Positions 2,818-60,548 of a stretch of DNA of 64,000 nt are shown piece after piece; the stretch's first letter is position 1, and every line of letters begins with the position of its first letter. The DNA is from Chloroflexota bacterium. Its GTDB lineage: Bacteria; Chloroflexota; Anaerolineae; J102. The notes beneath the pieces were generated by a model. It did not search any database and was not told where the DNA came from. It saw only the letters and a list, made by a program, of their open reading frames with translations. The stretch spans positions 23,050 to 87,049 of the forward strand of contig JAYRVO010000064.1 in NCBI GenBank assembly GCA_041918515.1. The letters are read 5' to 3'. Position numbers and translations under genes: made by a program.

Positions 2818-3163
2818 ACATAGCAGCCAACCCATGCTCTCGCGCCGGGATTTTGTCAAGCGCCAGCTGCTATTCGCTGCGCTGGCAATTACCGTGCTCC
2901 TGCTGTCACTCGCGATCGGCATTGTAGGCTATCACATAACCGAAGGGCTGAACTGGACGGACTCACTGCTCAATGCCTCGATGATCCTCGGCGGCATGGG
3001 GCCGGTGAATGACCTCAAAACTGAGGTTGGCAAGATCTTCGCCTCGTTCTATGCCTTGTTTTCGGGCATCGTCTTCTTGTTGGTGATGGGCATTTTCCTG
3101 GCCCCCGCCCTCCATCGCCTGCTCCACCGTTTGCACTTCCCGATCGATGAGGAATCGTCGTGA
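2810..3163 (+). CDS. small integral membrane protein, hypothetical
   Basis: 117 aa with two strongly hydrophobic segments. Start overlaps the hisC stop. No recognisable catalytic motif. Confidence 0.45.
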
Positions 3164-3209
3164 TCTCATTTCCCGTCATCCTCACCCGCGCACTTGGTGG
3201 AGAACTTTG

Positions 3210-3446
3210 ATGCCAACAGTTCTTCAGGACGGACCCTATACCTTTCTGTTCTTCAGTTCTGACGCCGGTGAACCCCCGCATATTCATGTCAAGCGCGATC
3301 GGCAGATCGCCAAGTTTTGGCTCACTCCGGTTTTCCTTGCCAAGAATCGAGGTTTTCGGGAACACGAATTGAACGACATACTTCGCCTTGTCGTCAAGCA
3401 CCAATCCTTTTTATTGGAGGCATGGCATGATTACTTTAGTGCTTGA
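3210..3446 (+). CDS. DUF4160 family protein
   Basis: MPTVLQDGPYTFLFFSSDAGEPPHIHVKRD..AKFWLTPV..LLEAWHDYF matches the DUF4160 pattern. Confidence 0.6.
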   Translation: MPTVLQDGPYTFLFFSSDAGEPPHIHVKRDRQIAKFWLTPVFLAKNRGFREHELNDILRLVVKHQSFLLEAWHDYFSA

Positions 3447-3732
3447 AGCTGAACCGACGGCGCTTAATGTCATTGTCAGCAATGATAAACTGATCGTTGA
3501 TCTCGCGGATGGCCGTACATTGGCAATTCCGCTTGAATGGTACCCGCGATTGCACTATGCCACCACCCAAGAGCGCCACAATTGGCAGTTTTTGGGCGAT
3601 GGCTATGCCATCGAATGGCCTGATCTGGATGAGCATATTGGCATCGAAGGATTATTGGCCGGGCGTCATAGTGGCGAAAGTGAACAATCCTTGCAGCGTT
3701 GGCTGCAATCTCGTCCTATGAGCCGAAATTGA
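3427..3732 (+). CDS. DUF2442 family protein
   Basis: Usual partner of DUF4160, with ATGA overlap. About 100 aa from MITLVLEAEP. Confidence 0.55.
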   Translation: MITLVLEAEPTALNVIVSNDKLIVDLADGRTLAIPLEWYPRLHYATTQERHNWQFLGDGYAIEWPDLDEHIGIEGLLAGRHSGESEQSLQRWLQSRPMSRN

Positions 3733-4736: not shown

Positions 4737-4815
4737 CTGGTTATTGGTAATTGGTTATTGGCGATTGACCGCCAATAACCAATTACCAATAACCAATAAC
4801 CAATAACCAATAACC
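4737..4815. repeat. CCAATAA-family heptamer hairpin (inverted ggttattgg / ccaataacc arms plus a tandem ccaataa run)
   Basis: Seen directly: ggttattggtaattggttattggcgattgaccgccaataaccaattaccaataaccaataaccaataacc, between hisB and hisH. Confidence 0.85.
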
Positions 4816-4818
4816 ACC

Positions 4819-5445
4819 ATGATCACCATCCTCGACTACAACATCGGCAACGTGCGCAGCGTGCAAAAGGCTGTCGAGCGGGCTGTGGCCGACGCCGGCA
4901 GCAGTCAGGCCGTGACGCTGACGGCCGATCCGCGCGCCATCCTTGACGCCGACGGCGTGATTCTGCCGGGCGTGGGCGCGTTCGGCGCTTGCATGACCAA
5001 CTTGCAGGCCGCTCACCTTTCGTCCATCGTGCGCGAGGTCGTGGTCGAAGGCATTCCCCTGCTGGGCATCTGCGTGGGCATGCAGATGCTGTTCGAGTTC
5101 AGCGAAGAGATGGGGGAATGGCGCGGCTTGGGTTTGCTGCCAGGCCGGGTGCGGCGCTTCGAGGGCGACCTGCGCGTGCCGCAGATCGGCTGGAATCAAC
5201 TTCACCCCACTCGGCCCGATCCTCTGCTCGATGGCATCGCCGATGGCGACTACGCCTACTTCGTGCATTCCTACTACTGCGACGCTTCCAACCCCGCCGA
5301 TGTGCTGGCGACGACCGACTACGGCCTGAGTTACCCTTCCGTCATCCAGCATGGCCGCATCTGGGGCATCCAATGCCACCCGGAAAAAAGCCAGCAGGTA
5401 GGGTTGCGGATTTTGCGAAATTTTGTTCATATTGTTGATCAGTAG
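4819..5445 (+). CDS. hisH: imidazole glycerol phosphate synthase glutamine amidotransferase subunit
   Basis: GICVGMQMLF (catalytic Cys), HSYY and CHPEKS motifs of class I GATase HisH. Confidence 0.9.
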   Translation: MITILDYNIGNVRSVQKAVERAVADAGSSQAVTLTADPRAILDADGVILPGVGAFGACMTNLQAAHLSSIVREVVVEGIPLLGICVGMQMLFEFSEEMGEWRGLGLLPGRVRRFEGDLRVPQIGWNQLHPTRPDPLLDGIADGDYAYFVHSYYCDASNPADVLATTDYGLSYPSVIQHGRIWGIQCHPEKSQQVGLRILRNFVHIVDQ

Positions 5446-5535
5446 ACAAGTAAATAAGGAAACAAGTAGACAAGGAAACAAGTGGATGTGCGCCCTTGTC
5501 TACTTGTCTACTTGTTTCCTTATCTACCCAAATTA
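5446..5535. repeat. inverted-repeat hairpin (gtagacaag...cttgtctac) after hisH
   Basis: tagacaagtaaataaggaaacaagtagacaagg, then its reverse complement ccttgtctacttgtctacttgtttccttat. Likely a terminator or structured element. Confidence 0.6.
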
Positions 5536-7721: not shown

Positions 7722-8659
7722 CGCTGGTCATCCGGCAGGCGGAGGAGGCCGATGTCCCTGCCATCTGCGCCGTCATCGACGCCAGCTACGCCGCCCAAGT
7801 GCAGCACCTGTACGGGGATAGCCGTCGCGGGCGCTGGACGCTCTACGACCCGGCCAGAGTGCAAACTTCGATGGAGCGAGAGCCTGCGGGCGTGCGCGTG
7901 GGCCAAAGCCAGGACGAGATCGTGGCCGTGTGCATGAGCCGCAACTACGGCAGCCTGGGTTGGTTCCACACGTTGGGCGTCCATCCCCAGGCCCAATGCC
8001 GGGGATTCGGCCGTGCGATGGTGGCCGACGCCGAAGCCTATCTGTCTGGCCGCGGCGCCCGCACCATCGGCCTGATGACCTGGCCCGACGCCGTTGACAA
8101 CATTGCCTTCTACCAACGATTGGGCTACGACGCCGTTGGGCTTTCTATCTATGCCTATCGGCAGACGCACGACGCCGTGATCAACGGGAAGGCGCCTGTC
8201 CACGCCAGGATGCTGTCTTCGCTGGTCGGCGCTGAATTCGACCTCGCCCTGACCACCGCCGCCAGGTTGTGCGACCAGATTCTACCCGGTCTGAATTATA
8301 CTCCCTGGCTTCGCTGGCTGATCGAACACAAGGCCGGCAATGCCCTGCTCGTTGGACGGGACGAACACCTCGTCGCCCTGGCCCTGGCGCAGCCAAAACA
8401 TGATTGGCTGGAGGGCCGACTGCTGCTCATCTCGCCCGCTGCCACGGCAGACGAAACCGCCTGGACGGTGGAATACATCCGCCGCTGGGCATTGAACCAC
8501 CATTTCGCCAGCTTCAGCTTTCCAGTGGATGTGATGTCGCCCGGCGAAGCTCGCTTCATCCGTGACCTCGATCTGCGGCTGTATAGCGACAGCATGCTCA
8601 ACCTGGCCCGCGGCCCCTGGCCCCCCTCCGGCATCCATTGCCTGCGCTTTAGCGGTTAA
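7718..8659 (+). CDS. GNAT family N-acetyltransferase (two-domain)
   Basis: N-terminal acetyl-CoA-binding pattern ([28 protein letters not shown]) plus a second GNAT-like half. ATGA overlap with the hisA stop. Confidence 0.65.
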
Positions 8660-8660
8660 G

Positions 8661-8750
8661 GTTGGTTATTAGTTATTGGTTATTAGTTATTGACGTTTTC
8701 TACCAATAACCAATAACCAATAACTAATCTCCAATAACCAATCCCCAATC
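8661..8750. repeat. CCAATAA-family heptamer hairpin between GNAT and hisF
   Basis: ggttggttattagttattggttattagttattgacgttttctaccaataaccaataaccaataactaatctccaataacc. Confidence 0.85.
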
Positions 8751-8754
8751 TCCC

Positions 8755-12585: not shown

Positions 12586-14127
<1,542 letters not shown>

Positions 14128-14177
14128 ATTCGGCAACCACGAAGACACGAAGAAACAAAAACACGAAGACAGTAAAG

Positions 14178-14570
14178 ATGGCTCATCTCCCCATTTCTGA
14201 ACAGGAAGAGCATATCGCCAGGCATATTGTGGACGCGGCGTTTACGGTTCACCGCACGCTTGGGCCTGGTCTGCTGGAGAGCGTGTATGAAGTTTGTTTC
14301 TGCCACGAGCTTGCTAAACGAGGCCTGTCACACCAACGACAGGTTGTCGTACCGATTCTTTACGATGGCCTCTGCATCGATGATGGCCTGCGGCTCGATG
14401 TTCTTGTCGAAGAGTTGGTCATTTGCGAATTGAAAGCCGTGGAAGTGGTTCATCCTGTATTTACGGCGCAATTGCTGACCTATCTGAAACTGACCGAAAA
14501 ACGGCTGGGATTTCTCATCAACTTCAATGTGCCCTTGATCAAGCAGGGTATCCAACGCTTTGTTCTTTGA
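14178..14570 (+). CDS. GxxExxY protein (PD-(D/E)xK nuclease-like fold family)
   Basis: 131 aa. GPGLLESVYEVCFCHEL is the GxxExxY motif. Conserved ..GFLINFN C-terminus. Confidence 0.65.
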   Translation: MAHLPISEQEEHIARHIVDAAFTVHRTLGPGLLESVYEVCFCHELAKRGLSHQRQVVVPILYDGLCIDDGLRLDVLVEELVICELKAVEVVHPVFTAQLLTYLKLTEKRLGFLINFNVPLIKQGIQRFVL

Positions 14571-14940
14571 ACTTTGTGCCTTTGTGTCTTCGTGGTGAAT
14601 ATAACCACCTCCACTTTCACACCAGCCATGCTCTTCCGCTCCTTGTTCTTTGACCTTCGTGCCTTTGTGTCTTCGTGGTGAATATAACCACCTCCACTTT
14701 CACGCCAGCTATGCGCTTCCGCTCCTTGTTCTTTGACCTTCGTGCCTTTGTGTCTTCGTGGTGAATATAACCACCTCCACTTTCACGCCAGCTATGCGCT
14801 TCTGCTCCTTGTTCTTTGACCTTCGTGCCTTTGTGTCTTCGTGGTGAATATAACCACCTCCACTTTCACACCAGCTATGCGCTTCCGCTCCTTGTTCTTT
14901 GACCTTCGTGCCTTTGTGTCTTCGTGGTGGATGGAGTTTT
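14561..14940. repeat. 83-bp tandem repeat, about 4.6 copies
   Basis: The motif tgttctttga recurs at 14561, 14644, 14727, 14810 and 14893 (period 83). Unit: ..gtgcctttgtgtcttcgtggtgaatataaccacctccactttcac(g/a)ccagc(c/t)atgcgcttc(c/t)gctccttgttctttgacc. An imperfect inverted copy (cacgaagacacgaag) lies at 14130-14170. Confidence 0.9.
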
Positions 14941-14945
14941 GACTG

Positions 14946-17900
14946 ATGTATTTCCGCCTTGAACTTACCCCCCGCCGCGGCCCGGACGACGGCCGCGCCA
15001 AAGCCACCCTGGCCACTTGCCGCGCCCTCGGCCTGACCGACCTCCCCCCCGTCGTCGTCTCCGACCTCTACTTCCTCGACGCCGACTTGTCCTTGCCCGA
15101 AGTCGAAGCCCTGGCCGCCACCGCCCTCCTCGACCCCGTCGCCGCCGAGCTTGTCGTTCAGCCACAGCCACAGCCATCGTCCATCGTCCATCGTCCATCG
15201 TCCGTCGAAATCACCTTCCTCCCTGGCGTCACCGACAGCGTGGCCGACAACCTGCTGGCGGTGGCGCACAGCCTGGGCTACGAAAACGTGCGGGCGGCGG
15301 CATCCGGCTTGAGCTACAGCTTCCTCGGCGAAGTCACCCCCACTGACCTCGACCACATCGCCCGCGACCTTTTGGCGAACGGCACCGTGCAACGCTATGT
15401 GATCGGCCAGCAGATTGCGCCGCCGTTCGTGGAAACGCACGAGCTGGCCGCGGGTGAGCGTTTGGTCGAGACCATCGCCATTCGAGATCAGGGCGAAACC
15501 GGGCTGCTCGCTCTCAGCCGTGAGCGCCGCCTCAGCCTCGATCTGGCAGAGATGCAAGCGATCCAGGCGTATTTTCGCAGTGAAGGTCGCGAGCCAACCG
15601 ATGTCGAGCTGGAAACCCTGGCGCAGACCTGGTCCGAGCATTGTGTGCACAAAACGTTTCGGGCGGAGGTGGAGTACCGGAGCGAGGAGGGAGATATCCC
15701 CGCTTCTTCGCCTCCCGTTTCCTCGCCTCTCCTCATCGACGGCCTGCTGAAGACGTATATCCGGGCAGCGACGGAGGCGGTGAATAAGCCGTGGGTGCGC
15801 TCAGCGTTTGTGGACAACGCCGGCATCATCGCCTTCGACGACACGTTCGACCTGGCCTTCAAGGTGGAAACGCACAACCACCCCTCGGTGCTGGAGCCGT
15901 TCGGCGGAGCGGACACGGGTGTGGGCGGGGTCATCCGCGACATTTTGGGCGTCAGCGCCAAGCCCATCGCCAACACCGACGTGCTCTGCTTTGGGCCGGA
16001 AGACTTGCCGGATGACAAACTCCCGGCCGGGGTGCTGCACCCGCGCCGCGTCGCCGCCGGGGTCATCCACGGCATCGAAGATTACGGCAACAAGATGGGC
16101 ATCCCCACCGTGAATGGAGCCGTGCACTATCATCCCGGCTACACCGCCAACCCGCTGGTCTATTGCGGTTGCCTGGGCATTTTGCCGCGCGGCAGCCACC
16201 GTTCGTTGCACGAAGCGCAGGCTGGCGACCTCATCGTCGCCATCGGCGGGCGCACGGGGCGCGACGGGCTGCGCGGGGCCACGTTCTCCAGCATGGAAAT
16301 GGATCACACCACCGGGGCCATCGCCAGCACCGCCGTGCAGATCGGCAACCCCATCGTCGAAAAGCAAGTGATGGAGGTGATCCTGCGGGCGCGCGACGCT
16401 AGGCTGTACAACGCCATCACCGACTGCGGCGCCGGCGGATTCAGCTCGGCGGTGGGCGAGATGGGCGAGCACGTGGGCGCGAGCGTGCAGCTTCAGGGCG
16501 TTCCGCTCAAATATCCGGGCTTGCAGCCGTGGGAGATTTGGCTTTCGGAGGCGCAAGAGCGCATGGTGCTGGCCATCTCGCCAGCCCATTGGCTGGCATT
16601 CCAGCAGATTTGCCGGGCGCACGATGTCGAAGCCAGCATCCTGGGCGAGTTCGATGGCTCCGGCCGATTGCGCGTGGCCTACGGCGAGACAATCGTGGCC
16701 GATCTCGACATGCACTTCCTGCACGATGGCGTCCCCCGCCGCCGCCTCACGGCCGTTTGGTCCCCGCCCGACCTGGCCAACCCCAACCCCGCCTCCTCGC
16801 CTCCTCCCCACCTCGCCTCCTCACTCCTCCGCCTCCTCGCCTCCGCCAACATCCGTTCGCGTGCCCCCATCATCCACCGCTACGACCATGAAGTCCAGGG
16901 CGGAACGGCTGTCAAGCCGCTAGTCGGGGTCGATCAGTGCGGGCCGAGCGACGCAGCAGTCGTGATCCCCCAACCGCTCCTCGCCTCCTCTTCCCCACCC
17001 GCAACTCGCCACCCGTTTCCCGCAGCCGTTTTGTCCGCCGGCCTCAACCCCCGCTACGGCCTCATCGACCCGTATGCTATGGCCTGGGCCTGCGTGGACG
17101 AGGCTTTTCGCAATGCCGTGACTGTGGGCGCTGACCCCGACCGTATCGCCATCCTCGACAATTTTTGCTGGGGCAACCCCAATCTACCCGACCGCCTTGG
17201 CGCGCTCGTGCGCTGCGCCCAGGGCTGTTTCGATGCTGCCATCGTTTATCAAACGCCTTTCATCTCTGGCAAAGATAGCTTGAACAATGAGTACATGGGC
17301 GAGGATGGCCAGAAGCACGCCATCCCCGGAACCCTGCTCATCTCCGCCCTCGGCATTGTCCCGGATGTGACCCGCACGACCACGAGTGACCTGAAAGCGC
17401 CCGGCGATTATCTTTATCTTTTGGGCGAGACTCGCCCCGAACTCGGCGGCTCGGCCTATCTCGACCTGCTCGGCGAAATCGGCACTTCCGTCCCCCAATC
17501 CTATCCTGCCCCGCTCGACCGCCTGCGCGCTCTGCACGGGGCCATCGCCGCCGGACTCGTGCGCGCCTGCCACGACCTCAGCGAAGGCGGGCTGGCCGTG
17601 GCCCTGGCCGAAATGTGCATCGGCGGCGGTTTGGGAGCGGAAATCAACCTGTCAAGCATTCCTCCCCAATCCTCAATAACCAATACCCAATTACTTTTCT
17701 CCGAATCCCTCGGCCGCTTCCTGATCGAGGTCGAGCCTGGCCATGCGGTCGAGTTCGAAGCGATGCTGGCAGGGCAGCCCGTGGCGTCGATCGGACGGGT
17801 GACCGCCGAGAAGAATATGGTTCTTGACGCTGGAACTGAGCGCGTCGAGGTCTCGATTGCCGACCTGAATCATGCTTTCTGTGGAGAACCGGCGCCATGA
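14946..17900 (+). CDS. purL: phosphoribosylformylglycinamidine synthase subunit PurL with N-terminal PurS-like extension
   Basis: 984 aa. PurL AIR-synthase-related domains (HKTFRAEVEY, ETHNHPSVLEPFGGADTGVGGVIRD, AIGGRTGRDG). Contains several in-frame low-complexity repeat inserts. Confidence 0.85.
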   Translation: MYFRLELTPRRGPDDGRAKATLATCRALGLTDLPPVVVSDLYFLDADLSLPEVEALAATALLDPVAAELVVQPQPQPSSIVHRPSSVEITFLPGVTDSVADNLLAVAHSLGYENVRAAASGLSYSFLGEVTPTDLDHIARDLLANGTVQRYVIGQQIAPPFVETHELAAGERLVETIAIRDQGETGLLALSRERRLSLDLAEMQAIQAYFRSEGREPTDVELETLAQTWSEHCVHKTFRAEVEYRSEEGDIPASSPPVSSPLLIDGLLKTYIRAATEAVNKPWVRSAFVDNAGIIAFDDTFDLAFKVETHNHPSVLEPFGGADTGVGGVIRDILGVSAKPIANTDVLCFGPEDLPDDKLPAGVLHPRRVAAGVIHGIEDYGNKMGIPTVNGAVHYHPGYTANPLVYCGCLGILPRGSHRSLHEAQAGDLIVAIGGRTGRDGLRGATFSSMEMDHTTGAIASTAVQIGNPIVEKQVMEVILRARDARLYNAITDCGAGGFSSAVGEMGEHVGASVQLQGVPLKYPGLQPWEIWLSEAQERMVLAISPAHWLAFQQICRAHDVEASILGEFDGSGRLRVAYGETIVADLDMHFLHDGVPRRRLTAVWSPPDLANPNPASSPPPHLASSLLRLLASANIRSRAPIIHRYDHEVQGGTAVKPLVGVDQCGPSDAAVVIPQPLLASSSPPATRHPFPAAVLSAGLNPRYGLIDPYAMAWACVDEAFRNAVTVGADPDRIAILDNFCWGNPNLPDRLGALVRCAQGCFDAAIVYQTPFISGKDSLNNEYMGEDGQKHAIPGTLLISALGIVPDVTRTTTSDLKAPGDYLYLLGETRPELGGSAYLDLLGEIGTSVPQSYPAPLDRLRALHGAIAAGLVRACHDLSEGGLAVALAEMCIGGGLGAEINLSSIPPQSSITNTQLLFSESLGRFLIEVEPGHAVEFEAMLAGQPVASIGRVTAEKNMVLDAGTERVEVSIADLNHAFCGEPAP

Positions 17901-18490
17901 CAACCGGATCACCATCCCCTGCCGGCCTGCCCATTCTGCTGTTCACGAACCCGCAAGAATGGGCCGATTGGCTCGACCGCTATCACGCCGATGCTGCTGG
18001 CGTGTGGCTACGCCTGGCGAAGAAGGCATCCAGCCTGACGTCCGTGACTTACGACGAGGCGGTGGAGGTGGGGCTGTGTTATGGCTGGATCGATGGCCAG
18101 AGCAAGCGCTATGACGCCGATTCATGGCTACAGAAGTTCACGCCGCGTTCGTCCAAGAGCATTTGGTCGAAAGTGAACACGCAAAAGGCGCAGAGACTGA
18201 TCGCAGAGGCCCGGATGAAACCGGCGGGGCTGCGGGAGGTGGAGCGCGCCAAGCAAGATGGACGTTGGGCAGCGGCGTATGACCCCCAGAGCACGGCTGT
18301 CGTTCCCGAAGATTTGCAGGTCGAACTCGACGACAATCCGGAGGCGAAGGCATTCTTCCAGACTCTCGACAGCCGCAATCGTTACGCCATCCTGTTCCGC
18401 ATCCAGACCGCCAACAAGCCCGAGACCCGCGTAAAGCGAATTCAGCAATTTATGGCCATGCTGGCGAAAGGGGAGAAGTTGTATCCATGA
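17897..18490 (+). CDS. YdeI/OmpD-associated family protein
   Basis: GVWLRLAKK..YDEAVEVGLCYGWIDGQSKRYDADSWLQKFTPRSSKSIWSKVN pattern. Overlaps the purL stop. Confidence 0.65.
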   Translation: MTTGSPSPAGLPILLFTNPQEWADWLDRYHADAAGVWLRLAKKASSLTSVTYDEAVEVGLCYGWIDGQSKRYDADSWLQKFTPRSSKSIWSKVNTQKAQRLIAEARMKPAGLREVERAKQDGRWAAAYDPQSTAVVPEDLQVELDDNPEAKAFFQTLDSRNRYAILFRIQTANKPETRVKRIQQFMAMLAKGEKLYP

Positions 18491-18555
18491 TACCCATCGC
18501 CATCCTCCACGCCCCCGGCACGAACCGGGACACCGACGCCGCTATCGCTTGTTAG
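18487..18555 (+). pseudogene. remnant duplicate of purQ 5' end
   Basis: ATGATACCCATCGCCATCCTCCACGCCCCCGGCACGAACCGGGACACCGACGCCGCTATCGCT is near-identical to the genuine purQ start at 19318 (MIPIAILHAPGTNRDTDAAIA vs MPPPPIAILHAPGTNRDTDAAIA). Terminated by TAG, then the TA cassette. Confidence 0.55.
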
Positions 18556-18981
18556 TTAGCCAGTCTTCCAAGCTTCGCTTAGGAAGCCACGTGGGGTGAC
18601 AATAGCAACGCCACGGAATGGATTGAGCCGAAGCAAATCACTATCTCCACTCACAATGCACTTTGCATTCCCACTGACCGCAAGCTCGATAAACTTATCG
18701 TCGCTAGGGTGACGGCAAGCTCGGATACGTTCGGCCGCTTCGATGAGTTTGGTTTCCCGCAGTAGCACAGCCAGGAATTCAAGTCGTTCCTCTTCACTTA
18801 CATACCTGGCAAAACCAGGACGCCCCAGCACTTCATTCAGCTCAGAGAGAGTCTCCACAGAAACGAGCAGATCACCATCGGCGATTGCTTTATCGAAAGC
18901 TTGACGTGGCAGCGAATGCTTCAATAAAGCTGCACCAACAACCGCATTCGTATCGAACACGAAACGTGGTCTAACGCTCAC
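18556..18981 (-). CDS. PIN domain toxin (type II TA system)
   Basis: RFVFDTNAVV..(acidic residues)..CIVSGDSDLL layout of PIN nucleases. 141 aa. Confidence 0.7.
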   Translation of the reverse strand: MSVRPRFVFDTNAVVGAALLKHSLPRQAFDKAIADGDLLVSVETLSELNEVLGRPGFARYVSEEERLEFLAVLLRETKLIEAAERIRACRHPSDDKFIELAVSGNAKCIVSGDSDLLRLNPFRGVAIVTPRGFLSEAWKTG

Positions 18982-19198
18982 GTAGCAACTCTTCGAGTTT
19001 TTCTTCAGTCAATCCACGTTCCATTGCTTTGTCACTCATTTCATCCATGATGTTGGCTAAAGAACTAGAACGAGTCGCGTATTCACGTAGCCAAAGATTC
19101 ATCAGCATCTGTAGTTTTGATTTGGTCTCTTTCGATGCCGAACGATAGGCTTGTGCTAATTCGGAATCGACTTGCAGTGTGACAGTGGCAAGCGCCAT
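18971..19198 (-). CDS. antitoxin (cognate to PIN toxin), start uncertain (19198-19246)
   Basis: Small ORF overlapping the PIN start by 11 nt (MALATVTLQVDSELAQAY...EEKLEELLRER). Confidence 0.5.
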   Translation of the reverse strand: MALATVTLQVDSELAQAYRSASKETKSKLQMLMNLWLREYATRSSSLANIMDEMSDKAMERGLTEEKLEELLRER

Positions 19199-19317
19199 TT
19201 CGTTTCGCTCCTGTAATCCATTTGAGGAACTCATCATGCTGTTCACATTATAGCACCCTCATCCTGGTCTCCTCAATTCCTCGCCCCTTCGCCCCCTCAA
19301 CTCCCTCGCCTCACCCC

Positions 19318-20136
19318 ATGCCCCCACCTCCCATCGCCATCCTCCACGCCCCCGGCACCAACCGGGATACCGACGCCGCCATCGCTTTCGAGCTGGCTGG
19401 CGGCAGCCCTGAAATCGTCCACGTCAACCAACTTCTCGCTGGCGAACGCCGCCTCGCTGACTACGCCCTGCTCGTCGTTCCCGGCGGCTTCTCGTATGGC
19501 GACGACCTGGGCGCGGGCAAACTGTGGGCCGTGCGCCTGCTGCACGATCTCGGCGAGCAGCTTCGTGCTTTTGCGGATGCGGGCAAACCCATCCTCGGCA
19601 TCTGCAACGGATTCCAGGTGCTGGTGAAGACGGGGCTGCTGCCGGGAGCAGGGGACGAAGGTGGCAAGTGGCAGGCGGCAATCTCCAATAACCAATCTCC
19701 AATAACCAATCTCCAACTCGCCACCCTCACCCGCAACGAATCCGCGCATTTCGAATGCCGATGGGTGTGGCTAGAGCCGAATGTTGCCAATCGTTCACCC
19801 TGGTTGGCCGGACTCGACCGCATCCATTGCCCGGTAGCGCATGGCGAAGGCAACTTCATGACCCGCGACGCCGCTGCACTCGATGCCATCCTGTCGCAAA
19901 ACCTCGTTGCCTTCAGCTATGTCGATGCCGATGGCCGCCCCGGCCCCTATCCGATCAACCCCAACGGCTCGGCCGCCGACATCGCCGGCGTGACGAACGC
20001 CAGCGGCAACATCCTCGGCCTGATGCCACATCCCGAAGACCATATCTTTCCCTGGCAGCACCCGGCGTTCCATCGCGGCACGGCCGGCTGTTCCGGTCTG
20101 AAACTTTTCCAGAATGGCGTCTCCATGACAAAGTGA
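19318..20136 (+). CDS. purQ: phosphoribosylformylglycinamidine synthase subunit PurQ (glutamine amidotransferase)
   Basis: IAILHAPGTNRD, GGFSYGDD, GICNGFQVL (Cys) and HPE motifs. Contains an in-frame ccaataacc/ccaatctcc insert ([17 protein letters not shown]). Confidence 0.85.
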   Translation: MPPPPIAILHAPGTNRDTDAAIAFELAGGSPEIVHVNQLLAGERRLADYALLVVPGGFSYGDDLGAGKLWAVRLLHDLGEQLRAFADAGKPILGICNGFQVLVKTGLLPGAGDEGGKWQAAISNNQSPITNLQLATLTRNESAHFECRWVWLEPNVANRSPWLAGLDRIHCPVAHGEGNFMTRDAAALDAILSQNLVAFSYVDADGRPGPYPINPNGSAADIAGVTNASGNILGLMPHPEDHIFPWQHPAFHRGTAGCSGLKLFQNGVSMTK

Positions 20137-20212
20137 CTGGGTGACAAGGTGACAAGGTGATCGCAGCGACATCACCTTGTCACCTTGTCACCTTGTCACC
20201 TTGCCACCGTAT
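20137..20212. repeat. GGTGACAA-family octamer hairpin
   Basis: gtgacaaggtgacaaggtgatcgcagcgacatcaccttgtcaccttgtcaccttgtcacc, a perfect inverted arrangement. Confidence 0.85.
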
Positions 20213-20236
20213 CAAGCAACCCAAGGATCTCCCACC

Positions 20237-33018: not shown

Positions 33019-33180
33019 TTTGGCGTATAGCGTATTTCGTATTACGTGTTCCGTAGCAATCACCCTGAGAGATACGAAATACGTAATACGGGATAAAATT
33101 ATTGCGTATTGCGTATTTCGTAGGAATAACGCACCATTCCAAGAAATACGCAATACGTAATACGCAACACGCAATACAAC
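33019..33180. repeat. CGTAATA/CGCAATA-family heptamer hairpins
   Basis: gcgtatttcgtattacgtg..., ...gaaatacgtaatacgg..., ...attgcgtattgcgtatttcgtagg...gaaatacgcaatacgtaatacgcaacacgcaatac. Confidence 0.85.
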
Positions 33181-33202: not shown

Positions 33203-34501
33203 ATGGCGCGATTTCTGCTGCGCAGCGTTCTTTCGACTATTGTCACCATGCTGATCGTCTCCATCACCCTCTTCTTCTTCCTGGAAGTGGGGTCAGGAGA
33301 CATCACGGTGAAGCTCCTGGGCATCGAATCGACGCCGGAACAGCGCGCCTCCTATCGGGCGCAGTTGGGCCTCAATGCCCCGGCCTGGCAGCGCTATCTC
33401 GATTGGCTGATCGGCAGCGATTGGCGAGTCAAGCGTCAGGTGGGGCATCGATTGGTCACGACCAAGAATCCGCAGACGGGCGAGGCAGAGTGGTGGGTCG
33501 AGGAGAACGGTGCGCTGGTGCGCTGGGAAATGAAGAATGGGGAAATGATAGTTTTCCGACGACAAGCAGACGGCACAGCCAGCCAAGAGCCGGCCACAGT
33601 TACGTGGATCACGAATGAAAAAGGCGAGCAGATCTTTTGGGGCGTCAACACCGACAACAGCGCCGTGATGTGGGTGAAAGGATCGGGAGAGACGGTGTGG
33701 GTGCGCACGAAAGCTGGGTTTCGCAAAGAAGGCGATGGCCCGCGCGAGTATATCCCGTTGCGTAAAGGCTTGATCCGCCTTGATGCCGGTAAATCCTTGC
33801 AGACGGGACGCCCCGTGGCGGTCACCCTGTTCCCGCGCGTCCGCAACACCCTGGTGTTGGCCGCCGTCGCCTTTCTCATCGTCATGCCTTTGGCCCTCAT
33901 TCTTGGCGTCGTGGCTGGCACCAACGAGGGCAAGCCCACCGATCGCACCATCTCCATCGGCGGCCTGGCGCTGACAGCTACGCCCGAGTTCGTCACCGGC
34001 ATTTTCCTCATCCTCATTTTCGGCGTGTGGCTCAAGATATTTCCCGCTGTCGCCATTTTTACCAGCGCCAACGCTATTTTCGAAAACCCGAAGCTGCTGG
34101 TTCTGCCCGTGCTGACGCTCACCGCCGCTGAATTGGGCTATGTGGCGCGCATGACCCGCGCCAGCATGGTCGAGGTGATGGATACCGCCTACATCCGCAC
34201 CGCCATCATCAAGGGCATGCCCCGCCGCCGGGTGATCATGAACCACGCCCTGCGCAATGCTTTGTTGGCCCCCATCACCATCATCATGCTGCATGTCAAC
34301 TGGCTGATCGGCGGCGTCGTGGTGGTTGAGTCGATCTTCGGCTATCCTGGCCTGGGCACGTATATCTATCAATCGGCCATCTTCGGCGACATCAACGCCG
34401 TCGAAGCCGCCGCCATGCTCATGGTCATCATCGCTGTCATCACGCGTCTGCTGGGTGATTTTGCGTATACGATGTTGAATCCGCGCATTCGGTATTCGTA
34501 A
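33203..34501 (+). CDS. ABC transporter permease (OppB/DppB type) with large periplasmic insert
   Basis: N-terminal TM helix, then a 170-aa loop, then the EAA-like MTRASMVEVMDTAYIRTAIIKG permease signature. Confidence 0.85.
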   Translation: MARFLLRSVLSTIVTMLIVSITLFFFLEVGSGDITVKLLGIESTPEQRASYRAQLGLNAPAWQRYLDWLIGSDWRVKRQVGHRLVTTKNPQTGEAEWWVEENGALVRWEMKNGEMIVFRRQADGTASQEPATVTWITNEKGEQIFWGVNTDNSAVMWVKGSGETVWVRTKAGFRKEGDGPREYIPLRKGLIRLDAGKSLQTGRPVAVTLFPRVRNTLVLAAVAFLIVMPLALILGVVAGTNEGKPTDRTISIGGLALTATPEFVTGIFLILIFGVWLKIFPAVAIFTSANAIFENPKLLVLPVLTLTAAELGYVARMTRASMVEVMDTAYIRTAIIKGMPRRRVIMNHALRNALLAPITIIMLHVNWLIGGVVVVESIFGYPGLGTYIYQSAIFGDINAVEAAAMLMVIIAVITRLLGDFAYTMLNPRIRYS

Positions 34502-34582
34502 GTAGAGATTAGAGATTAGAGATTGCAATCTCCAATCTCTAATCTCTAATCCCCAATAACCAATCTCCAATAACCAATAACC
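34502..34582. repeat. GAGATTA / CCAATAA heptamer hairpin
   Basis: gtagagattagagattagagattgcaatctccaatctctaatctctaatccccaataaccaatctccaataaccaataacc. Confidence 0.85.
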
Positions 34583-40708: not shown

Positions 40709-44479
<3,771 letters not shown>

Positions 44480-44519
44480 GGTCGCTACCTTTGGGGTGCA
44501 GGGGTGGGGCGGGCCAGGA

Positions 44520-45737
44520 TCAGAGCAATTGGCTGATGAAAGCGGCGACGGGGCCGGCGCCGTTGGGTCGTTGGGAGTGCTGGCGGGGTAAAGAGAGCAG
44601 GTCGGGGATGCGGGGAATCCAGGCGCCTTCGGCAAAGGCGGCGCCATCGATGGCGAAGCCAGGCATGGAGCGGTCGGCAAAGGTGGCGAAGGTTTCGGAT
44701 TCACGAAAGTGGGGGCGGGTGACGTAGCCGTAGGGGATGCCGGCGTGGTAGGTTTCGGCCAGGGTGCTGTAGCCCAGTTTGCCGATGAGGGCGTCGGCGG
44801 CGTTGACGAGGTCGGGGTGATAAAAGGGGGATTGGGTGGGCAGCAGGAGGATGTTTTCGTTGCGCACCATCGTTTCGCCCACGCCGGGGATGATGAATTG
44901 GATGGGGCGCAGTTCGTGCAGGCGGTGGAGGAAGGTGTAGTCCCAAGCGACGCCGCCCATGGTGATGATGACTACGGCGGCCTCCGGTGAGACGCCGAGT
45001 TGCTGGCGAATGGTCGCGGCAGGCGTGCGCGGTTCGCGGCTGACGGGCGGAACGGTGAGATCGGCCGCGCAGGGTTGGCAGACGGGTTGGATCTGGATGT
45101 GGTGGTCGGCTTGGGCGAAGAGTTGGGCAAAGAGGTCGATGTAGGGCAAAAGGCGGGGTTCGGCGGCCGCGTAGCCGGCGTAGATCCAATCCCAGGTGAA
45201 GTTTTCGATGAGGATGGAGGGTAAGCCGGCGGCGCGGGCGACGCTGAGGCCGAGGGGGGAGATGTCGCAGAGTACGAGCGTGCAGCCGAGATCGTGGAGT
45301 TGGTCGGCAAGGCGGCTGAGGGAGGCTTCGTCCCGAGGCTTCGTCCCGAGGCTTCGTCGCGAGCGCCCCTCGGCCTGAGACTTCGTCGAGCTCAGTCGAG
45401 ACGCTCGGGACGAAGGCTCAGCCGAGCGGCTCAGCCCGAGGGGCTCAGCCCGAGGGGCGACAGGGAAGGGGGCGAAGTGAGCCAGTCGCTCCACCGTGGC
45501 GGCCGCGTCTTCGATCAGGGCTGTGGTTTGCACCAGGCCGATGTCGGTGAGGAGTTCATGATAGCCAAAGGGCTGGCGCAGGGTCTGGCGGAAGAACCAG
45601 GCGGGGACGGTGGTGAAGATTTCGCAGCGGAGGGCCGGGTTTTGCGTCTGGAGGGCGTCCATGACGGCGATGGCCCGCGCGGCGTGGCCGAAGCCGTGGG
45701 GGGTGATGAAGTAGGCAATGGTAGATTGCGGATTCAC
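44520..45737 (-). CDS. glycosyltransferase, GT1/MGT-like
   Basis: N-terminal GFGHAARAIAV and C-terminal UDP-sugar-binding-like region. Central in-frame insert PRAEPLGLSRSAEPSS..LGTKPRDEA. Confidence 0.6.
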   Translation of the reverse strand: MNPQSTIAYFITPHGFGHAARAIAVMDALQTQNPALRCEIFTTVPAWFFRQTLRQPFGYHELLTDIGLVQTTALIEDAAATVERLAHFAPFPVAPRAEPLGLSRSAEPSSRASRLSSTKSQAEGRSRRSLGTKPRDEASLSRLADQLHDLGCTLVLCDISPLGLSVARAAGLPSILIENFTWDWIYAGYAAAEPRLLPYIDLFAQLFAQADHHIQIQPVCQPCAADLTVPPVSREPRTPAATIRQQLGVSPEAAVVIITMGGVAWDYTFLHRLHELRPIQFIIPGVGETMVRNENILLLPTQSPFYHPDLVNAADALIGKLGYSTLAETYHAGIPYGYVTRPHFRESETFATFADRSMPGFAIDGAAFAEGAWIPRIPDLLSLPRQHSQRPNGAGPVAAFISQLL

Positions 45738-56589: not shown

Positions 56590-56740
56590 ACGGGGGGATT
56601 GGTTATTGGTTATTGGGGATCAGCAATTCCAAATTTGTGGACGCGGATCGAAAGAACACGGATTCTTGGCCATAAAACTATCCGTGTTTCCCCCATCCGT
56701 GTCCACAAGGAGATTGGAGATTAGGGATTGGGGCATGTCT
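56590..56740. repeat. composite element: ggttattgg repeats plus a GTGGACGCGGAT-family palindromic unit plus ggagattgg repeats
   Basis: ggggattggttattggttattgggg..caattccaaatttgtggacgcggatcgaaagaacacggattcttggccataaaactatccgtgtttccccc is related to the 100-bp unit at 60221-60547. Confidence 0.7.
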
Positions 56741-57563: not shown

Positions 57564-59029
57564 CACAGGTAGCCCAGGCTGCGCAGGTGCCGTTCCAGGC
57601 CGGGGTCCAGGGTGGCGGCCGGGGCTTCGTCGCGAGCGCTCAGCCGAGCGGCGGCTGCGGCGGCTGGGGTCAGCGAGGAGAGGCGGGCGTCGAGCGCGGC
57701 CGCAAGGTCGGCGACGCGCTGGGGTTGGGCCGCGGCCAGGTCTTGGCATTCGCCGGGGTCGTCCTCCACGTCGTAGAGTTCGCTCTCGCCGCGGCTGCTG
57801 CGGATGAGCTTGTAGCCGCCGCGCACGAGCGCATCGAAGGTGCGGTCGTAGCCTTTGCTGGCGGGGTCGAAGCGGGGATGGCGGCGGGCGAAGCGATGGC
57901 GGTGGGGGGCGGTGTATTGGATGATTGCGAATTGCGAATTGCGAATTGCGAAATCGGAGGAGAGAAGGGAGCGGCCGGGGAGGGCTTCGTCCTGAGGCTT
58001 CGTCCCGAGGCTCAGCCCGAGGGGCTCAGCCCGAGGGGGGGGACGGTGGTCGGGGGGGGCGGCGGCGAGGTCGAGGAGGGTGGGGAAGAGGTCGGTGTGT
58101 TGGACGGGGGCGTCGTCGTCGCCGGGGGGGAAGACGCTGGGGTAGTGGATGAGGAGGGGGACGTGGGCCAGGCTGTCGTAGACGCAGTATTGGTGGTCCA
58201 TGAGGCCGTGGTCGCCGATGTTTTCGCCGTGGTCGGCGGTGACGATGATCATCGTGTTTTCCAGACCGCCGACGGCGCCGAGGAAGTCGAGCAGCTCGCC
58301 CAGTTTGTGGTCGACGTAGTTGATCTCGGCGTCGTAGAGGGCGCGCAGGCCGAGGAAGTCGAGGTCGGTCATGGGGATTTCGCCGGCCATGTAGGCCCAG
58401 GCGTCCTGGTTGGCCTGGCGGGCGCGGCGCAGGGCGGCGGGCTGTAAGAGGCGCTCGGCGTAGCCGGGGGGCGGCTGGTAGGGCAGGTGGGCGTCGAGGT
58501 AGAGGCCGAAGAGGAAGAAGGGGCGAGCGGGGTCGCGTTCACGCGCCCACCAGCGCTGCACATAGGTGTTGAGTTTGGCCGCGCCTTTGTCGTGGCGTTC
58601 GAACACGCGCTTGCGCAGGGCTTTTTCCCAGCGAGGGAAGGGGAGGCGGCCCTGGCTGGGGAGCAGCCGCCAGAGTGAGTAGAAGCGCTCGAAGCCTCGG
58701 TCGAGGCCGAAGTGCGGTCCCACCCAGGCGTTGGTGGAGAAGGCCGCCGTCTGGTAGCCCAGTTCGCGCAGGGCGGCGGCCAGGGTGGGGAGGGCGGGGT
58801 CAAGAAGGCGCTGCTCGACATTGACGCCGTGTTGGCGGGGGAAGAGGCCGGTGAAGAGGCTGGCGTGGCTCTCCAGCGTCCAGACAGAGGCGGCGCGGGC
58901 CTGGGTGTAGCGCCGGCTGGCCGCGGCCAGGTTATCGAGGCGCGGGGTCACGGGCAAGGGATTGCCGTAAGAGCCGAGGCCATCCGCGCGCACGCAGTCG
59001 AGGACGAGGAGGAGGAGGTTGGGGGGCAT
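57563..59029 (-). CDS. sulfatase family protein (alkaline-phosphatase superfamily)
   Basis: LLVLDCVRAD (Cys/Ser for formylglycine), ADHGE motif. Contains in-frame inserts PRAEPLGLSLGTKPQDEA and FAIRNSQFAI (from ttgcgaa repeats). Confidence 0.75.
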   Translation of the reverse strand: MPPNLLLLVLDCVRADGLGSYGNPLPVTPRLDNLAAASRRYTQARAASVWTLESHASLFTGLFPRQHGVNVEQRLLDPALPTLAAALRELGYQTAAFSTNAWVGPHFGLDRGFERFYSLWRLLPSQGRLPFPRWEKALRKRVFERHDKGAAKLNTYVQRWWARERDPARPFFLFGLYLDAHLPYQPPPGYAERLLQPAALRRARQANQDAWAYMAGEIPMTDLDFLGLRALYDAEINYVDHKLGELLDFLGAVGGLENTMIIVTADHGENIGDHGLMDHQYCVYDSLAHVPLLIHYPSVFPPGDDDAPVQHTDLFPTLLDLAAAPPDHRPPPRAEPLGLSLGTKPQDEALPGRSLLSSDFAIRNSQFAIIQYTAPHRHRFARRHPRFDPASKGYDRTFDALVRGGYKLIRSSRGESELYDVEDDPGECQDLAAAQPQRVADLAAALDARLSSLTPAAAAAARLSARDEAPAATLDPGLERHLRSLGYL

Positions 59030-60034: not shown

Positions 60035-60180
60035 GTCAAGGTGACAGGGTGACAAGGTGGCAGGGTGACAAGGTGGCAGGGTGACAGGGTGACAGGGTGA
60101 CAAGGTGACAAGGTGACAGGGTGACAAGGTGACAAGGTGACAAGGTGACAAGGTGATAAGGTGATGGGGTGACAAATCAT
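60035..60180. repeat. GGTGACAA/GGTGACAG octamer array (about 17 units)
   Basis: caaggtgacagggtgacaaggtggcagggtgacaaggtg...gtgacaaggtgataaggtgatggggtgacaaatc. Confidence 0.9.
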
Positions 60181-60204
60181 CCGTTCCTTCGCTGCACTCA
60201 GGAC

Positions 60205-60548
60205 AAGGTTTTCCCTATCTGCGTCCACAGATTGACCACACGCAGAGCAATTCCAAATTTGTGGACGCGGATGGAAGGAACACAGATTTTTGACCAAGAA
60301 CTATCCGCGTTTCCCTATCCGCGTCCACAGATTGACCACACGCAGAGCAATTCCAAATTTGTGGACGCGGATGGAAGGAACACAGATTTTTGACCAAGAA
60401 CTATCCGCGTTTTCCTATCCGCGTCCACAGATTGACCACACGCAGAGCAATTCCAAATTTGTGGACGCGGATGGAAGGAACACGGATTTTTGACCAAGAA
60501 CTATCCGCGTTTCCCTATCCGCGTCCACAGATTGACCACACGCAGAGC
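60205..60548. repeat. 100-bp tandem repeat, about 3.4 copies, each with an internal 12-bp inverted repeat (atccgcgtccaca / tgtggacgcggat)
   Basis: The motif gcgtccacag recurs at 60221, 60321, 60421 and 60521. Unit identity is above 97%. The array abuts the glmS stop codon. Confidence 0.9.

Follow-up and report, generated by a model that had tools for sequence, protein, structure and literature searches.

The question raised by this locus is why the essential purine gene purL should be separated from its upstream neighbour, guaB, by a small nuclease-like gene and a head-to-tail array of 83-nt units. The locus belongs to a 64,000-nt stretch of DNA (termed here the window) from a Chloroflexota contig (JAYRVO010000064.1, assembly GCA_041918515.1), and the original prediction, made from the letters of the window, was that the array could be a regulatory leader or a phase-variable spacer for purL. 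The analysis described here points to a different origin: the array probably arose when the right boundary of a selfish cassette was duplicated in tandem and then amplified, the cassette being a GxxExxY gene (encoding a PD-(D/E)XK nuclease-like protein) bracketed by two inverted arms.

Tandem Repeats Finder places the array at 14560-14929 on the + strand (period 83, 4.5 copies, 97% matches, score 691), a repeat search of the window finds its copies spaced exactly 83 nt apart, and alignment to a related locus (L001, described below) delimits the same feature; the predicted array therefore exists, with a copy number of 4.5 rather than 4.6. A 45-nt unit core occurs four times in the window, always within the array, where shuffled sequences lead one to expect 0 occurrences. 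Each unit consists, in order, of the final 11 nt of the GxxExxY open reading frame (ORF), 1 nt, a 25-nt right arm, a 31-nt spacer and ATGCTCTTCCGC(TCC). In other words, the unit begins within the gene, its opening 11 nt (ttgttctttga) including the gene's TGA. The first right arm (CTTTGTGCCTTTGTGTCTTCGTGGT, 14572-14596) begins 2 nt past the stop codon and is of the ancestral type, as in L001; copies located by repeat search and motif scan follow at 14655-14679, 14738-14762 and 14821-14845, and the fifth and last, at 14904-14928, is succeeded by an L001-type spacer and by the purL Shine-Dalgarno sequence. Unit 1 also carries a decoy purL start (ATGCTCTTCCGC, 14628-14639), recognized through the match of CACCAGCCATGCTCTTCCGC to another related locus, L087, and equivalents lie at 14711, 14794 and 14877 (ATGCGCTTCCGC); each decoy opens a 17-codon mini-ORF that closes at the TGA of GTGGTGA. 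Among the four full units five positions differ, the ancestral arm variant being in unit 1. Repeat homology stops at 14929, which is 16 nt before the purL ATG at 14946 and not 5 nt before it, as had been supposed; the 16-nt spacer between them (gatggagttttgactg, 14930-14945), with GGAG at 14933-14936, is collinear with L001. An array of clustered regularly interspaced short palindromic repeats (CRISPR) was also considered and is ruled out, the spacers being 97% identical to each other.

The cassette lies between guaB (IMP dehydrogenase, 12628-14127; TIGR01302, E = 5e-182) and purL (14946-17900, with an N-terminal PurS-like region; TIGR01736, E = 5.7e-173, and Pfam matches), all three genes being on the + strand; the G+C content of cassette plus array is 45-55%, versus 63-68% for the surrounding genes. 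The left arm (ACCAC-GAAG-ACAC-GAAG-AAAC-AAAA-ACAC-GAAG, 14136-14168, + strand) is itself an octamer tandem repeat, which Tandem Repeats Finder describes as (CACGAAGA) x 4.2 at 14138-14171. Its core (14136-14159) pairs with the right arms: over 24 nt it is 88% complementary to the first of them (14573-14596), and it is 83% complementary to each of the four later copies. With an inverted-alignment score of z = 7.8 against shuffles, the inverted partial copy predicted on the far side of the gene is borne out.

Between the arms is an ORF of 130 amino acids plus stop (14178-14570), not 131, identified by profile matches. Its product matches both TIGR04256 (E = 4.9e-41; 139.8 bits, cut-off 35) and PF13366 (PDDEXK_3; E = 9.3e-40; 136.1 bits, cut-off 22) full-length and above the curated cut-offs; the GxxExxY motif, the PD-(D/E)xK residues and the restriction-endonuclease-like fold are all present, the residues invariant in the family being E34, D74, E84 and K86, and likewise C40, C42, H43 and C83. 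The Foldseek neighbours of an AlphaFold2 model (predicted local distance difference test score 84.9) are generic PD-(D/E)XK nucleases, none of them at E <= 0.001, and the protein has no sequence match in PDB and no match in PADLOC or PHROGs. The sole literature statement that turned up on PF13366 enters it as "Unknown; multiple transfers" (PMC3424549). The guaB stop codon (TGA, 14125-14127) overlaps an ATG at 14124 (ATGA), and a database version of the protein (P0001, 148 aa) starts at this ATG, thereby translating the left arm (14124-14177) as TTKTRRNKNTKT; that start was probably mis-called, because homologues begin at the second Met.

That the cassette was inserted, and that the array is a further, lineage-specific addition, is indicated by the states of the guaB|purL junction in related loci. 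L001 (a Logan contig) shares the order guaB-GxxExxY-purL, its cassette protein being 84% identical to that of the window; its arms are 28 nt long and 89% complementary, and it has one right arm followed directly by ggatggagttttgatcgATG, with no array. In alignment the window equals L001 plus 4 x 83 nt, the L001-type arm variant being retained by unit 1 and the L001-type spacer by the last copy. In L091, whose PurL is 71% identical, the guaB TAG abuts the purL ATG (ggTAGATGcac), and there is neither cassette nor arm; because this empty allele has no arms, the arms would have arrived at the slot together with the gene. In L087 (PurL 81% identical) the same slot holds a PF05635 four-helix-bundle gene (3044-3445; "23S rRNA IVS protein", where IVS denotes an intervening sequence; E = 2.2e-27) within a bracket (2962-3498) of heptamer-periodic (GGGTGGC)n and (CCACCTC/CCGCCTC)n, 30 nt long and 87% complementary; the bracket architecture thus recurs in a second small-gene family, whose motif is different. 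In L089 the slot is taken by an RNase H-like gene without arms. From these alleles the cassette is judged to be an insertion into a junction that originally abutted.

An array upstream of the orthologous purL is absent from L001, L087, L089, L091, L088 and L090, and, because the closest orthologous locus is without it, the array is not a conserved purL leader. A search for the unit beyond the array found no copy in the rest of the window, in the genome contigs of 185,579 species genomes (queried with a 28-mer) or in the metagenome contigs of the Joint Genome Institute (JGI; queried with a 27-mer); having a right arm only and no copy found elsewhere, the unit is not like a miniature inverted-repeat transposable element (MITE). 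Exact look-ups of the GxxExxY protein (130-aa and 148-aa versions) and of the guaB product matched no indexed contig, these look-ups and the collection scans found no second assembly of this lineage, and a metagenome scan for close relatives with the PurL N-terminus returned only ones that are 31-37% identical. Queried by phmmer with the four-helix-bundle protein of L087, neither the window nor the fetched loci yielded a copy.

The arms are a general bracket of GxxExxY genes. A sample of 80 loci, 55-78% identical and representing the closest subfamily only, was drawn from one-genome-per-species contigs and spans more than ten phyla (with members in the Anaerolineae, Nitrospinota, Desulfobacterota, Planctomycetota, Bacteroidota, Ignavibacteria, Acidobacteriota, Margulisiibacteriota and others). 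The best inverted alignment of the 120-nt flanks exceeds z = 3 against shuffles in 62 of the 80 loci (median z 7.6), and a motif map finds a left-type arm upstream plus a right-type arm downstream in about 76 of them. The consensus is everywhere RCCAC-NAAG-RCAC-NAAG-RCAC-NAAG for the left arm and its reverse complement for the right arm; the detection pattern covered the first two octamers only, yet the third, which lies outside it, is 80-95% conserved. The left arm stands just before the start codon (beginning 23-36 nt upstream in 39 of 63 loci) and the right arm just after the stop codon (ending 23-28 nt downstream in 34 of 63). The outward flanks of the arms are inverted-symmetric (TTW-RCCAC...GTGGY-WAA), GATG being the only direct repeat seen (in the window and L001). 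Within the window the arm motif occurs 14 times versus 1.1 expected, 11 of these occurrences being at the GxxExxY locus. With a bracket that is general in GxxExxY loci and that is missing at the empty guaB|purL junction of a relative, the prediction of a small, cassette-like gene between inverted repeats holds.

Both neighbours are co-directional with the cassette at 55 loci, versus 1 locus at which both are opposite (based on a crude ORF strand call), and curated records agree (radA|x|FAD protein, fabD|x|fabG, ade|x|manC-like and ABC|x|ABC); cassettes appear to be promoter-less and to reside inside host transcription units. A search for other cassette types behind CACNAAG arms yielded only host genes or spurious ORFs. 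Nothing matched in a phage collection, two scans of viral contigs were uninformative, and a plasmid collection gave just seven records, mostly chromid-like. When recent mobility was tested by looking for one exact protein in differing contexts, P0051 was found in 23 contigs, with the same neighbours at all 10 listed. Descriptions of the arms were sought in the open-access literature on GxxExxY, PF13366/PDDEXK_3, IVS/four-helix-bundle proteins and short tandemly repeated repetitive (STRR) sequences, and none was found.

What is conserved in each arm is a motif rather than a stem, because the variable positions do not covary between arms: the five variable (N, R) positions form 118 Watson-Crick pairs versus 101 +/- 7.6 expected, positions 9, 13 and 17 pair at chance level, and on the transcribed strand G.U-compatible combinations are not in excess over A.C combinations (13 vs 12, 13 vs 11 and 5 vs 7). 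The outermost pair alone switches concordantly, in 62 of 63 loci (A in the Chloroflexota-type, G elsewhere), and the type of this outermost base follows protein similarity (55 of 63 nearest neighbours versus 35 expected). Distant subfamilies (L092:338-817, L093:355-820, L094:330-819 and L095:300-815) carry other octamers, in cultured bacteria between co-directional housekeeping genes (radA, fabD|fabG, ade). Thus the 46%-identical GxxExxY gene of Bacteroides finegoldii has (CACAGAGG)n arms; the arms of a Bernardetia GxxExxY gene are (CACAGAGA)n; a Sphingomonas fabD|fabG insertion has (CGCGAAGN)n as a left arm only; and at a Treponema locus the inverted repeat is a plain one of 11 nt. It would therefore seem that what is read in each arm is its sequence, the simplest reader being the encoded protein, and that the arm motif follows the protein subfamily.

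Multiplied arms recur as well. Arm-bearing arrays with a period of at least 25 are detected by Tandem Repeats Finder at 9 of the 80 loci, among them L030, L027, L005 and L002, that of the window scoring highest. Right arms are multiplied downstream in L002/L003 (period 48; in L002 48 nt x 2.2, again taking in the ORF end), L036, L023 and L062; left arms are multiplied upstream in L030 (41 nt x 6.4), L038 and L052; and in L027 a 94-nt period is repeated x 4.2 and x 3.3. Complete, gene-less hairpins form arrays in L005, L027, L039, L072 and L097. Within the P0051 population (L097-L106), nine clean assemblies from different samples have an identical arm map. The tenth assembly of that population (L100) has a run of N and a duplicated flank right at its arm hairpins (1660-1760); because arm repeats break short-read scaffolding in this way, copy numbers in metagenome-assembled genomes need care.

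The explanation favoured here for these features is that a promoter-less cassette (left arm, 130-aa GxxExxY gene, right arm) inserted between guaB and purL, and that an 83-nt segment was later duplicated, which would have comprised the final 11 nt of the ORF, the right arm, the arm-to-purL spacer and the first ~12-15 nt of purL. Since that segment would have run from the end of the GxxExxY gene into purL, the array would be made of extra right arms plus dead purL starts. The junction (CGC-TCC-TTG) can be placed in a short likeness between AACGCTTTG at the ORF end and TTCCGCCTTG at the purL start, which suggests a microhomology-mediated duplication; unequal recombination or slippage between the 25-nt arm copies may then have raised the copy number to 4.5, leaving the functional purL start, with its own GGAG, after the last arm. 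The array would thus be a by-product of recombination- and hairpin-prone cassette ends, with no dedicated regulatory role. That the duplicated segment reached into purL is suggested by a 20-nt sequence, CACCAGCCATGCTCTTCCGC, which matches the right-arm end plus purL start of L087 (CACCCG-CATGCTCTTCCGC) in 18 of its 20 positions, the match falling exactly on the start codon (z = 5.5, p = 0.003).

Several points weigh against this explanation. The match to the purL start spans only 20 nt. The last copy has the L001-type spacer gatggagttttgactgATGtat, and the internal copies have an arm-to-ATG spacer that is 15 nt longer together with an L087-type purL start; because a single duplication leaves the presence of both spacer types unexplained, a second event (gene conversion or allele recombination) must be postulated. 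One metagenome-assembled contig is the source of the copy number, so that mis-assembly is possible, as the scaffold gap of L100 at such repeats illustrates. Relative to shuffles, folding of the unit is somewhat better on the minus strand (z = -2.34). Finally, we infer the order of events and the part played by microhomology, as well as neutrality, the last of these from non-conservation. A blastn-short comparison of unit and spacer with the rest of the window and with 81 loci gave chance-level matches only, apart from the left arm. The possibility that the spacer is a decayed GxxExxY C-terminus was rejected by eye, EYNHLHFHASYALPLLVL being unlike INFNVPLIKQGIQRFVL.

Other readings of the same features can be set against these observations. 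One, considered unlikely, is that the bracket is an RNA device: the left arm would pair with a right arm in the guaB-GxxExxY-purL transcript, so that the cassette is looped out or processed, as a 23S rRNA intervening sequence is, and guaB-purL coupling restored, and the extra right arms would, with equally little likelihood, serve as alternative partners that tune translation of purL or of the GxxExxY gene. The arrangement of the arms suits such a device: the left arm is purine-rich and the right arm pyrimidine-rich, the cassettes are co-oriented with their hosts (55 +,+ versus 1 -,-), the left arm ends 8-10 nt before the start codon with its last octamer (NAAGGA) overlapping the Shine-Dalgarno sequence, and the right arm begins 2-3 nt after the stop; moreover, complementarity in L001 reaches outward to the purL ATG, the minimum-free-energy fold joins the left arm with right arms, and the outermost pair changes from A-T to G-C concordantly in 62 of 63 loci. 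Against it, the variable positions show neither covariation (118 vs 101 +/- 7.6) nor an excess of G.U over A.C on the transcribed strand; nor would a stem alone need one motif to be kept across more than ten phyla. The fold energy of the region is not better than that of shuffles (z only -1.25; individual + strand units range from -0.67 to +0.62), and L001 does without an array. Regulation of purL through the array itself, which would set its transcription or translation and, by changes in copy number, switch it, is very improbable. It is true that the array stands directly upstream of an essential purine gene, that it offers four decoy ATGs together with CCUCC (anti-Shine-Dalgarno-like) tracts, and that tandem repeats are intrinsically unstable, but the closest ortholog lacks the array, the junction is empty or otherwise filled in other relatives, and a related arm array does not vary among nine clean assemblies of different samples. 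Searched against Rfam, the whole window has 0 matches at the gathering threshold, and 13900-15100 still has 0 when matches up to E <= 10 are admitted; a promoter and terminator scan finds no + strand promoter-like and no terminator-like site. With its absence from the closest ortholog, and a fold that is not significant, the predicted role as a regulatory leader is not sustained. A purine-gene riboswitch or cis-regulatory RNA is rejected in that no described RNA family is matched and the array is not conserved upstream of orthologous purL genes; a phase-variable contingency repeat fits poorly, in that the 83-nt unit lies between a stop codon and the Shine-Dalgarno sequence of the next gene, with no + strand promoter-like site, and such a period outside an ORF or a -35/-10 spacer cannot work as a classical contingency repeat.

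The two remaining readings concern how the units came to be adjacent. Under serial insertion each unit would be a non-autonomous mini-cassette (with ACCAC as its left end and, after an internal deletion, the last 11 nt of the ORF and a right arm), and such units would have landed repeatedly beside the resident right end, in the manner of clusters of repetitive extragenic palindromic (REP) sequences and bacterial interspersed mosaic elements (BIMEs), or of MITEs; both parts of this proposal have a slim chance of being correct. Each unit does contain GTGGTGAATATAACCAC, which in L004 and L005 is the right-arm/left-arm junction between consecutive complete hairpins, the CCAC-CTC-CAC-TTT-CAC that comes after it is able to pair with the arm, and gene-less hairpins or hairpin arrays exist in other genomes (L005, L027, L039, L072 and L097). 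Past ACCAC, however, the supposed left arm is unrecognizable, and the unit was found nowhere else, whether in the window or in the two collections; its exact 83-nt head-to-tail register and 97% identity suit amplification better, and the copy of the purL start within it implies a local origin. That short reads assembled across a repeat created the copy number, or the whole array, is hardly credible: the source is indeed a metagenome-assembled contig (151,856 bp), and the related L100 has a scaffold gap and duplicated flank at its arm hairpins, but the four full units differ from each other at five positions, with the ancestral arm variant in unit 1, the junctions are clean and in register, and arrays like it turn up in other lineages that were assembled independently. 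The probable origin of the array thus remains amplification at the right boundary of the cassette.

More generally, and tentatively, GxxExxY genes with (CAC-N-AAG-R)3 arms may be hitherto undescribed, cross-phylum selfish cassettes that invade operons, the nuclease recognizing the arm motif--perhaps, and just as tentatively, as transposon-like ends or as the two halves of a homing site--and the gene-less hairpins and arrays being non-autonomous relatives or scars. This reading is suggested by a motif that is conserved without covariation, by arm motifs that shift with protein subfamily (such as CACAGAGG with the 46%-identical Bacteroides protein), by protein identities of 62-84% across phyla, and by an empty site without arms. 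The four-helix-bundle '23S IVS proteins', whose arms have other short-period motifs, would form a sister class in competition for the same slots. For purL little follows: an array that looks to be a recent by-product does not warrant annotation as a regulatory element of purine genes. What is gained is a testable handle on two large, functionally uncharacterized families, GxxExxY/PDDEXK_3 and the four-helix-bundle "23S IVS proteins", namely a 24-nt motif on both sides of the gene in many phyla, co-orientation with host operons, and occupied versus empty junction alleles. Should the nuclease indeed act on the arms, housekeeping operons (guaB|purL, fabD|fabG, paired ABC transporter genes) would harbour a new kind of mobile or selfish cassette, which could partly explain the short-period hairpin repeats that break short-read assemblies of Chloroflexota, Bacteroidota and other genomes.

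Other repeats and insertions were noted in the window. Over 17897-20214 the pur cluster is interrupted at each junction that abuts, or nearly so, in L091: between purL and purQ lie an OmdA/YdeI gene (17897-18490) and, both on the minus strand, a PIN toxin (18556-18981) and a small ORF (18971-19246), whereas purQ and purA are separated by a gene-less octamer hairpin, (TGACAAGG)n/(TCACCTTG)n, at 20126-20214. Within purL, hexamer, heptamer and octamer tandem repeats (CAGCCA, CCATCGT and CGCCTCCT) occur at 15159-15207 and 16782-16844, two linker regions that vary hugely in length among relatives, the expansions in P0123 being far larger at both. Gene-less hairpins of 7-8-nt tandem repeats, STRR-like in character, lie at 4738-4816, 5442-5527, 8659-8751, 33025-33177 and 34487-34578 (for example TGGTTAT/CCAATAA and ACAAGGAA/CTTGTCTA), their arms being 82-100% complementary and their loops 0-25 nt long. 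At 60037-60548 (CAAGGTGA) x 17.4 is followed by a 100 bp x 3.4 array of 98% identity, whose unit includes the hairpin CCGCGTCCACA...TGTGGACGCGG; a related hairpin is at 56635-56708. Repeats with a 13-14-nt period (GGCTTCGTCCCGA/GGCTCAGCCCGAGG) occur at 40808-41579, 45322-45458 and 57983-58038, and a minus-strand ORF of 1331 aa (40709-44704) contains an inverted pair (40816-40849/41437-41470, 94% complementary) and (CTCTCCG) x 8.9.

Among known systems, the cassette most invites comparison with those in which a small gene lies between two inverted copies of a short repeat, the REP doublets forming hairpins (REPINs) and the REP-associated tyrosine transposases (RAYTs), which, together with BIME clusters, were reportedly treated by Nunvar in 2010 and by Bertels and Rainey in 2011. 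As with REPIN-RAYT systems, the repeat is also found as gene-less inverted doublets and intergenic tandem clusters (L005, L027, L039, L072 and L097). The protein, however, has a PD-(D/E)XK fold, with matches to PF13366 only, and is not an HUH/Y1 (IS200/IS605-like) transposase; the arms are octamer-periodic, (CACNAAGR)3, rather than GTAG-type palindromes; the arm motif is common to phyla rather than species-specific; and the family is described as multi-copy. The intervening sequences of 23S rRNA that carry PF05635 ORFs likewise consist of a small ORF within inverted ends inside a host transcription unit, and in L087 a PF05635 gene occupies the very same slot, but an IVS is defined by a 23S helix site and by RNase III excision, whereas the cassette lies between protein genes, with no rRNA match in the window, and its arms are conserved in sequence beyond pairing, without covariation. 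Since it encodes no HUH transposase and lies outside rRNA, the cassette belongs to neither system. With MITEs and transposons that have terminal inverted repeats (TIRs), it shares terminal inverted repeats of ~25 nt, insertion relative to an empty site and a G+C content below that of its flanks; it differs in encoding a protein that is not a known transposase and in that no target-site duplication could be defined. The 83-bp unit departs from a MITE in being one-armed (its left part keeps only ACCAC) and in having no dispersed copies, unit and arms being confined to this locus in 64 kb.

Homing endonuclease genes, whether free-standing or intron-borne, include a PD-(D/E)XK class (e.g., I-Ssp6803I). 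Like them, the cassette is a small nuclease gene wedged between conserved genes, and the gene-less arm hairpins could correspond to an uninterrupted target; unlike them, the empty junction of L091 (one allele, from a distant relative) is without arms and hence without an uninterrupted site. Cyanobacterial STRR sequences are similarly intergenic tandem repeats of 7-8 nt, often in hairpin pairs, of a kind abundant in the window, but the host here, judged by the relatives of its PurL, is a Caldilineales-like Chloroflexota rather than a cyanobacterium, and the arms are tied to a specific gene family. Compared, lastly, with variable-number tandem repeats and minisatellites, the 83-bp array behaves as a locus-specific minisatellite.

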